A stretch of DNA of 64,000 nucleotides from Hydrolagus affinis (Eukaryota), in contig JAAILG010001126.1 of the NCBI GenBank assembly GCA_012026655.1, positions 1 through 64,000 on the forward strand, read 5' to 3'. Under the pieces are notes generated by a model. The model was not told the DNA's origin. It was given only the letters and a program-made list of their open reading frames with translations, and ran no database searches. The first letter of the stretch is position 1, and each line of letters opens with the position of its first letter. Shown here piece after piece: positions 57,801-60,800 of the stretch. The position numbers and the translations under genes were made by a program.

Positions 57801-60800
57801 ATCTCCCCACAGTGGTCTGATCTGCGTTCTCGTCTTTTTGTAATACATTAATCCCTCCCCAACCTCGGGGGATACGTTCCTGAAACCCCCTTGTGGTTAG
57901 TAAAACCACGGTTGGCAAATACAAGGCCTTATGGGAAAAATGGGGTTACAGGGAGTAAGTTGCTTGTTCTTTTACTAAACAAATAAAATACACAATAACC
58001 TAACAAGAGCAATAAATCTTCAAATAACACAACAAAAAAGAATATAAAAAACAATAAATTCATGTTATTTACCTTAATCCTAATGATGATGATGATGATG
58101 GGGGAGGTGGTTGTTACATGGAAGAGGGGCCCTACCCACCCTCTTCCTCTGCCTCCTCCTCCGGATCATCAATCACCGACGAGTGTGAAGGGGTTGGATG
58201 TGGAGAAGGCGGTGTGGTGGGTGACACCGAGTGGGGGTGGATGCAGTGAAGCGACATCGTGGCTGGTTGATGCAACTGGGTCCTAGCGCGAAATGCTAGT
58301 GTTAATGTTAAAACCCGTGTATACGTAAAATTCACTGCGCGGTTGGCACAGTTGTCGCAGAGAGGAAACCGTATATACTTGAAATCCGCAGATGTCAAGA
58401 CCGCGGTTGGGGTGGGATGCCGATATTATTATTATTATTCTTTATGCACCATGGGAACTTGCGTAACTCTCTGAACACTCAAGGCGACTCGGAAGGGCAC
58501 AGGTTAGAACTTCCTACCCTTGTGGCAAATGTTACCTATCAGCTCTCCCTCCCCCGCATACCTGTCTGTGTTGGTACTTCATAAATGCTGCTTCTCACAC
58601 ATTTCTTATTCACAGGGTCCTCCCGGTGAAGAAGGTCCACCCGGCCCACCTGGTTCTCCTGGTCCTACCAGTATGTACGACTTACCAAATATTCAAGATC
58701 ATTTTCCGATGGATATACTAAACGCTGATGAGACTTTCGATACTGCTAAGAAAGATTCGGGGGTAGAGACTACCCTGAAGTCATTGAGTAGTCAATTGGA
58801 AACCATGCGTAGCCCAGATGGTTCCAAAAGCAATCCAGCCCGAACATGTCAAGATCTCAAACTATGTCACCCAGAAAAGCAAAGTGGTACGTATCTGGAA
58901 ACAAGCCATTTTTTCATCTCCCCCAAAATGATCTATGCTTAGTTGTATTAAGCAACCACTGAAATGGAATTCTTGAGTATTTAAGAGGGTTTTTGAGGCA
59001 AGTAAAAGTGTGCCTTTTATCAACCGCCAAATAGGGCAGTGAATGATTGCCCCAGACATTTGTGAGCACTTGTCTCTGGAAACACGACGATCTATAGAGG
59101 GGTTTAAGATTCTGAAGGATTTTTTTAGGGTCAGTGTTGGCAGGGTGCTACCACTTGTTGACGCGTCCAAAATAAGGAGGCATATATATAAGATAGCCAG
59201 CAGCTTGCCCGAAAGGGAGTTCAGGAGGAAATTTTTTAGATGGAACAGTGCAACTGTGGAACTCACTGCCAGAATCTGTGGGTCAAGCAAAAGTATCAGA
59301 GTTCTTGAGATGAAACTTGTTGCTTATTCGAGGGAGGAGGAAATGGAGGATTATAGAAAAACTGCTTTGGAGGATCATGTCAGAGCATTAGCCGATGAAA
59401 AACATTTCATAAAGTCTAATCTAACATTTGTAAAATATAATATTTTACTCTTCTTGGTCATGTTTCCAAGGGATAATTGTCACATTGTTCAATATCACAA
59501 CCAATGTTAACATGAGCTCTCCGGTCAATATGAGACTATTCAACAACTTGTGGTGTCAGCCATGTTCAGTTAATAGCGTTGTCATCTTTGGGTCAAGAAT
59601 GTTGCGTTGGATCTTTCAACACACACATATATGTTCAAGATCGTGAATGCCTGAAAGTGAAAACATGTCTTTGTTTGGACAGGAGTATACTGGGTGGACC
59701 CTAACCAGGGTTGTGTTGAGGACGCAATTAAAGTATTCTGTGATATGGACAGTGGCGAGACCTGTATTCATGCTGATCCTTCTGAAATCCCAAGCAAAAC
59801 ATGGTGGAGCAAAAGGAATGACAATGATGATAGACATTTATGGTTTGGTGTCTTTATGAATGGTGGATCCCAGGTAAACATGTTGTTTGTTATTATTGTA
59901 AAACAAAATATTTTCCAGCACCATTAGTTCTAAGGATTTTCAAACAGAGCATCGCTCTCAACTGAATTGGGCCCTATGATTTTTGATAGGTTTTAGTGAG
60001 TTTGCTGTCCAAGATGAGATCAGAACATGTTTCTTAATGATGGTAAATTGGAGCTTAGTTTGAAAGTTTATTTTTTTCATAATCAATTATGTTATATACA
60101 TGCCTTAGCTTGTCAATTGGCAAAGTAATCAGCATTTTCACATTTTCTTTAAAAACAAGTGGTGAAACTGAATTTATTTATCACACCCATCTTCCAAAAA
60201 ATACCCCTGGACATAACATGGCAATGTGTTGTGTAAACCTTGTGAAATTGTTTTACCCAGTGAAATAGCACCATCTACTGATAGATAATGAGTACCACAG
60301 TAAATAAATAAATACTGTAGTTTGTTCAAGGTCACACGAGGCAGTAATTTTTGTTACTGTACATACTTTCATCATTAAAGGCTGAGCGCTTGCAGATGCT
60401 GACTCCCTTTGGAAAGGGGATACCTGTCTTGTGAGTGTCTGATGCTACTTTAAACTAAAAGTGTTGTTGATTTTTCAACACAACTAATTAATGAAAGAGA
60501 GTGAATCCTGGTCCTCAGTTTGTCTGAGCAACATGTAAAAGCTCCCCCTAGTGAACTCTACACACAGATACTGAGTGGTAGTTCATGAAAGTGGTGTCAT
60601 TGTAAAATCTGACTTTAACAACCGATCTGAAACACAGCACCACATTCAGTTAAAACTCTTAAATCACTCTTGACTGGAGGAGCGCATGTATCGATGAACA
60701 AATCCTGTGAGCATGAAACAGAAGGAAATAACAGATTTACAATGCATTCCATACGAATAAATAATAATAAAAAATTCATTTTGCCGTTATACACTTAACA

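Follow-up and report, generated by a model that had tools for sequence, protein, structure and literature searches.

The window analyzed here, a stretch of 64,000 nucleotides from Hydrolagus affinis (contig JAAILG010001126.1, positions 1–64,000, forward strand), contains a single fibrillar collagen gene of the COL5A2 clade that keeps both inter-chain cysteines of the C-propeptide. Judging from sequence comparisons, this gene is very probably the ordinary cartilaginous-fish ortholog of COL5A2, and its product would most likely join alpha1(V) or alpha1(XI) chains in heterotrimers, contributing the one alpha2(V) chain of each.

Gene Structure

We placed 53 exons between positions 9635 and 61893 (Table 1). 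All of them are bordered by AG/GT ends, and together they form a single open frame of 1452 residues. With the N-termini of lizard and starling COL5A2 as tblastn queries, we could not locate the first coding exon (signal peptide) in the window, and no signal-peptide exon was identified between the window start and position 9635. Positions 1–120 contain GC-box-like and TATA-like elements that may represent the promoter of the collagen gene. The encoded chain combines a VWC N-propeptide, an uninterrupted helix of about 1014 residues and a COLFI C-propeptide, the features that define a clade A fibrillar collagen. The major helix is encoded by exons of 45, 54, 99, 108 or 162 bp and contains 173 prolines, 84 of them in the Y position. 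Its last 231 residues, which are the helix residues carried by the human COL5A2 record used for comparison, align with human COL5A2 without gaps and in exact register at 72% identity. Incomplete gene models fell out of register with the helix in global alignments, and these alignments were disregarded.

Table 1. Features of the collagen gene in the window
Feature	Position	Strand	Evidence or remark
VWC exon (cysteine-rich N-propeptide)	9635–9835	+	tblastn with lizard and starling COL5A2 N-termini, E 1e-20 and 1e-23; AG/GT ends
Six exons, N-propeptide minor helix and N-telopeptide	10751–17002	+	Spliced frame open, canonical AG/GT ends
Individual coordinates of these six exons	10751–10767, 10988–11020, 12261–12293, 12985–13038, 15542–15643, 16922–17002	+	
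Major triple helix	17643–58669	+	338 unbroken Gly-X-Y triplets (1014 aa)
Junction exon (end of the helix, C-telopeptide, stalk, Cys1, Cys2 and Gln at position 42)	58616–58886	+	Spliced frame; joint to next exon in 12 RNA reads
Cys1 codon	58847–58849	+	
Cys2 codon TGT, inter-chain (Cys47 numbering)	58865–58867	+	Identical in X12 contig
C-propeptide exon: Cys3, Cys4, Cys5, Ca2+-loop motif (Gln62 and Asp67 kept)	59683–59873	+	RNA reads and DNA contig of organism B
Cys3 codon TGT, inter-chain (Cys64 numbering)	59712–59714	+	Unchanged in X7 contig
Cys4 codon	59739–59741	+	
Cys5 codon	59763–59765	+	
C-propeptide exon: chain-recognition region, Cys6, Cys7	61104–61346	+	Joints in 17 and 24 RNA reads
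Cys6 codon	61206–61208	+	
Cys7 codon	61341–61343	+	
Last coding exon: Cys8 and stop codon	61747–61893	+	Spliced frame
Cys8 codon	61882–61884	+	
3′ UTR, end approximate	61894–63700	+	Stranded RNA depth persists, then fades
AATAAA hexamers in the 3′ UTR	62647, 62877, 63377, 63658	+	

Splicing of the last four exons yields eight cysteine codons. This result bears out the initial annotation, which had claimed the full set and the same codons for Cys2 and Cys3; Cys6 to Cys8 fall beyond the interval 58840–59780 that it had marked. Relative to Cys1, the second to fifth cysteines are offset by 6, 23, 32 and 40 residues, which corresponds to the spacing of Cys41, Cys47, Cys64, Cys73 and Cys81 in the alpha1(I) structure, where Cys47 and Cys64 form the inter-chain bond according to the excerpted text of PMC5353611. 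The chain contains Cys2 as well as Cys3, as homotrimer-forming fibrillar chains do.

Several other features of this region were recorded. In the Cys3 exon, the codon at 59685–59687 encodes Val ahead of YW, a position occupied by Glu or Asp in most rows; Val is kept in organism B and the exon joint of organism D reads as Leu, which makes the change a lineage-wide one. The intron stretch just upstream of the junction exon (57790–58450) differs in composition, contains (GAT)n and (TAT)n tracts and looks like an inserted element. Fragments of high-copy repeats occur in an intron (59143–59323) and in the 3′ UTR (63298–63404), where every run has numerous contigs with loose ends. The window extends 2.1 kb past the stop codon.

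Reliability of the Cys3 Codon

The initial annotation had raised the possibility that TGT at 59712 is a sequencing error. Contigs and reads from 4 of the 24 listed sequencing runs were compared with the window. A DNA contig from organism B (X7) spans 59639–60021 with seven other letters, all of them listed and none within 59712–59714. Raw RNA reads from the same organism (X21) cover the Cys3 exon at a depth of about 25, and the 40 rows listed, with 338 further rows beyond the listing, show no difference at the Cys3 codon. A contig from organism C (X12) matches 58600–58871, the region of Cys1 and Cys2, without any difference. Organism D (X13) also covers the Cys3 exon and was left out of the evidence on this codon, since most of its differences fall in the unlisted rows. 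All three splice joints of the C-propeptide are supported by RNA reads (Table 1). Since the codon is unchanged in a second organism and four lizard and bird proteins carry Cys in this same motif, the chance of a sequencing or assembly error at 59712 is negligible; we found nothing in support of such an error and consider it refuted in practice.

Clade Placement

In a tree of 44 C-propeptides, from which P0125, P0127, P0138 and P0139 were excluded because fewer than 200 of their residues aligned, the window chain falls within a COL5A2 clade of 22 rows (support 100/99). It is sister to the teleost and amniote COL5A2 rows, which form a clade to the exclusion of the window chain (85/84), and its end branch of 0.18 was not flagged as long. 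The best C-propeptide identities are 70–72% to lizard and bird COL5A2 vs 62–66% to col2a1-like rows. Grouping of the C-propeptide with named COL5A2 and a helix in register with human alpha2(V) both identify the gene as COL5A2. The tree position suggests the cartilaginous-fish ortholog, which would be expected at this node, and makes one-to-one orthology with COL5A2 likely, being the sole basis for this assignment.

The node expected for the ortholog would equally suit an in-paralog or lost ancient paralog. The initial annotation had proposed, as its second option, a paralog that forms a homotrimeric fibrillar collagen of its own; in the form considered here, a separate COL5A2-like paralog was kept in this lineage and became homotrimeric. 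The position of the chain as sister to all bony-vertebrate COL5A2 rows would fit such a paralog, as would a proline-poor helix (43 vs 55 Pro over 231 residues) and a telopeptide shorter than the amniote ones. A cartilaginous-fish ortholog would, however, take the same position in the tree, and Cys3 requires no special explanation. At 80% likeness, the RNA reads of organism B contain a single version of the Cys3 exon (21/21, 19/19, 26/26 and 27/27 at four differences), so no close second copy is visible. Furthermore, five clade A genes were inferred for jawed vertebrates in the excerpted text of PMC8887668. With no positive support for the paralog, we consider this reading very unlikely and the ordinary ortholog the better description of the window gene.

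No cartilaginous-fish col5a2 appeared by name in the one match of a single-exon search, the 12 matches of a search with the skink region, or the best 120 of 293 matches of an alignment search. A search of representative sequences returned mostly single-exon fragments, with a bat sequence as the only COL5A2-like match reaching Cys3, and a search of the Atlas returned collagen clusters only. Of the COL5A2 COLFI alignment that the initial annotation had proposed, the sequences retrieved for mapping Cys3 cover sauropsids, mammals and teleosts.

A side observation concerns other collagens of cartilaginous fishes, which seem to have two col3a1-like chains (P0021, P0025, P0026, P0140). In Callorhinchus, one of these chains contains Cys3 (P0025) and the other Ser (P0026); the Pristiophorus chain also contains Ser, and both Ser-bearing chains have Asn in place of Asp43. 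This pattern may point to a type III collagen that is heterotrimeric. As both Callorhinchus models end in the same C-terminal sequence, the pattern may also stem from a gene-model artefact.

Distribution of Cys3

All four sauropsid proteins retrieved from the COL5A2 clade contain Cys3 (P0012, P0014, P0018 and P0124). They come from the skink Lerista edwardsae, Varanus komodoensis, the starling Lamprotornis superbus and the tropicbird Phaethon lepturus; the Lerista protein is not named COL5A2 and was assigned by clade membership. Like the window chain, the lizard and bird proteins have eight cysteines, the same residues around Cys3 and a non-basic residue at position 42. The window chain differs from them by a shorter C-telopeptide, by Gln instead of Asp at position 42 and by a helix poorer in proline, and its chain-recognition stretch is longer than that of bird COL5A2. 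Human and mammalian COL5A2 share the clade, 69% C-propeptide identity and the 231-residue helix register with the window chain, but contain Ser at Cys3 in 5/5 named species (human, hamster, tamarin and two bats). The initial annotation had given Ser for human alpha2(V), and the named human record P0123 agrees. Teleost col5a2 belongs to the same clade with C-propeptide identities of 52–68%, but also contains Ser in each of the three named species (two Silurus and Kryptolebias). The same residue was found in the Logan and JGI rows of the COL5A2 clade that reach this position.

The excerpted text of PMC8887668 states that the third cysteine residue is modified in mammalian col5a2 only. The col5a2 sequences in its Table S3 are from ghost shark, thorny skate, gar, sturgeon, reedfish, coelacanth, lizards, quail and alligator, with no teleost among them. 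Together with Cys3 in lizards and birds, this statement supports the first option of the initial annotation, namely that the window chain keeps the ancestral state, and it shows that this conclusion is already in print. The initial annotation had also noted that novelty would fall if Cys3 were common in non-mammalian COL5A2, and this is the case. Hence, Cys3 in non-mammalian col5a2 is a real and already known observation, and in the window chain it likely represents the ordinary ancestral state.

The finding that teleost col5a2 also contains Ser is a small addition that the sequence list of PMC8887668 could not show, and it makes it likely that the loss happened twice. On the retrieved rows alone, two losses are as short a history as one loss followed by one regain. 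Two separate losses are favored because the statement in the excerpt of PMC8887668 covers gar and coelacanth. From these comparisons we infer that Cys3 is ancestral and that mammals and teleosts each replaced it by Ser independently. Ser in place of Cys3 also occurs in teleost col2a1-like rows (Channa, Coryphaenoides) and in a clade A chain of Danionella, in addition to teleost col5a2 (P0010, P0024, P0019, P0022, P0032); the change thus recurred several times within clade A.

Homotrimer Competence

The initial annotation had read Cys2 and Cys3 as marks of a candidate homotrimer-competent chain, a step that would hold for the isolated C-propeptide. According to the excerpted text of PMC6181919, disulfide-linked homotrimers arise from human C-propeptides that possess both cysteines. 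All human fibrillar C-propeptides tested conformed to this cysteine code, and restoring the missing cysteine always conferred homotrimers, including disulfide-linked homotrimers of human alpha2(V)-type C-propeptides in cells. By analogy, the isolated C-propeptide of the window chain would probably form disulfide-linked homotrimers. However, the excerpt of PMC11573663 shows for type I procollagen that Cys2 and Cys3 are insufficient for a homotrimeric helix: an S2C variant of alpha2(I) and an alpha1 chimera with the alpha2 helix both gave disulfide-linked C-propeptide trimers without a folded helix.

The window chain shares Cys2, Cys3, the Ca2+-loop residues and the overall domain plan with alpha1(I), alpha1(II) and alpha1(III), but it falls outside their clades. 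Nor does it carry the Cys-Cys that COL3A1 rows show where the helix ends. Arg42, or Lys in clade B, is expected of homotrimer-forming chains, and Arg42 makes an inter-chain salt bridge in the alpha1(I) homotrimer (excerpt of PMC5353611). This position is occupied by Gln in the window chain, by Asp, Glu or Gln in 8/8 other COL5A2 rows tested and by Arg or Lys in 9/9 other chains tested. C-propeptide homotrimers may still form where Arg42 is absent, since human alpha2(V)-type C-propeptides with the restored cysteine trimerized in PMC6181919. The last 10 triplets of the helix contain 9 Pro (4 in Y) in the window chain and 10 (5) in human alpha2(V), compared with 14 (6) in alpha1(I) and 11 (4) in alpha2(I) as given in the excerpt of PMC11573663, whose count may set the end of the helix at a slightly different point. 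A ghost-shark col3a1-like chain with eight cysteines has only 7 Pro (5 in Y) in this stretch. A low proline content may therefore reflect body temperature, and the argument from proline is weak.

In addition to its role in heterotrimers, an ordinary ortholog could build a genuine homotrimeric collagen in a particular tissue of this animal. The validity of the cysteine code, the retained residues of the Ca2+/Cl− base (Arg39, Asp43, Gln62 and Asp67) and the intact helix speak for this reading. It conflicts with the unfolded helices of the linked type I trimers, with the missing Arg42 and with the alpha2(V) helix end, which is less stable than that of alpha1(V) according to the excerpt of PMC11573663. 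The excerpts of PMC11173678 and PMC13188829 contain nothing further on Cys3, and PMC2112266 and PMC2121086 yielded matches in their reference lists only. None of the titles and abstract beginnings searched, with most subscription journals outside this scope, including older biochemistry of fish and chick collagens, described an alpha2(V) homotrimer. We consider such a homotrimer very unlikely. Chick fibroblasts reportedly produce a 2:1 procollagen of alpha1(V) and alpha2(V), going by the title of a 1981 paper, which concerns another bird than the starling and tropicbird from which we know the avian Cys3 state. Shark elastoidin is a homotrimeric fin-ray collagen; it was considered as a product of the window gene and dropped, as the literature listing held no link to col5a2.

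Under the preferred reading, in which an ordinary alpha2(V) chain enters heterotrimers, we propose the following assembly. Three C-propeptides would associate via Ca2+, and Cys2–Cys3 bonds would join neighboring chains, as in established work. The clade B chains retrieved, crocodile COL5A1 and gar col11a1, keep both Cys2 and Cys3. If an alpha2 chain with eight cysteines pairs with two such clade B chains, all three links could close to a disulfide ring and leave no free thiol. We infer that the chain interface and the weak end of the helix, rather than the lack of a cysteine, would then keep homotrimers rare. The formation of heterotrimers is compatible with a minor homotrimer alongside.

Conclusions

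As found, the significance of Cys3 in the window chain is small, given that its presence in non-mammalian col5a2 is already in print. The natural alpha2(V) chains with eight cysteines from the window, lizards and birds can nevertheless serve to test the cysteine code against the helix end in the chain selection of type V collagen. It is very unlikely that cartilaginous fishes, and perhaps also lizards and birds, build a homotrimeric collagen from their eight-cysteine alpha2(V) chain, a molecule that mammals and teleosts would have lost with their respective changes from Cys3 to Ser. If a stable homotrimer of this kind did exist, it would be a collagen molecule absent from the literature listings searched, and it would reveal what has been lost in mammals.
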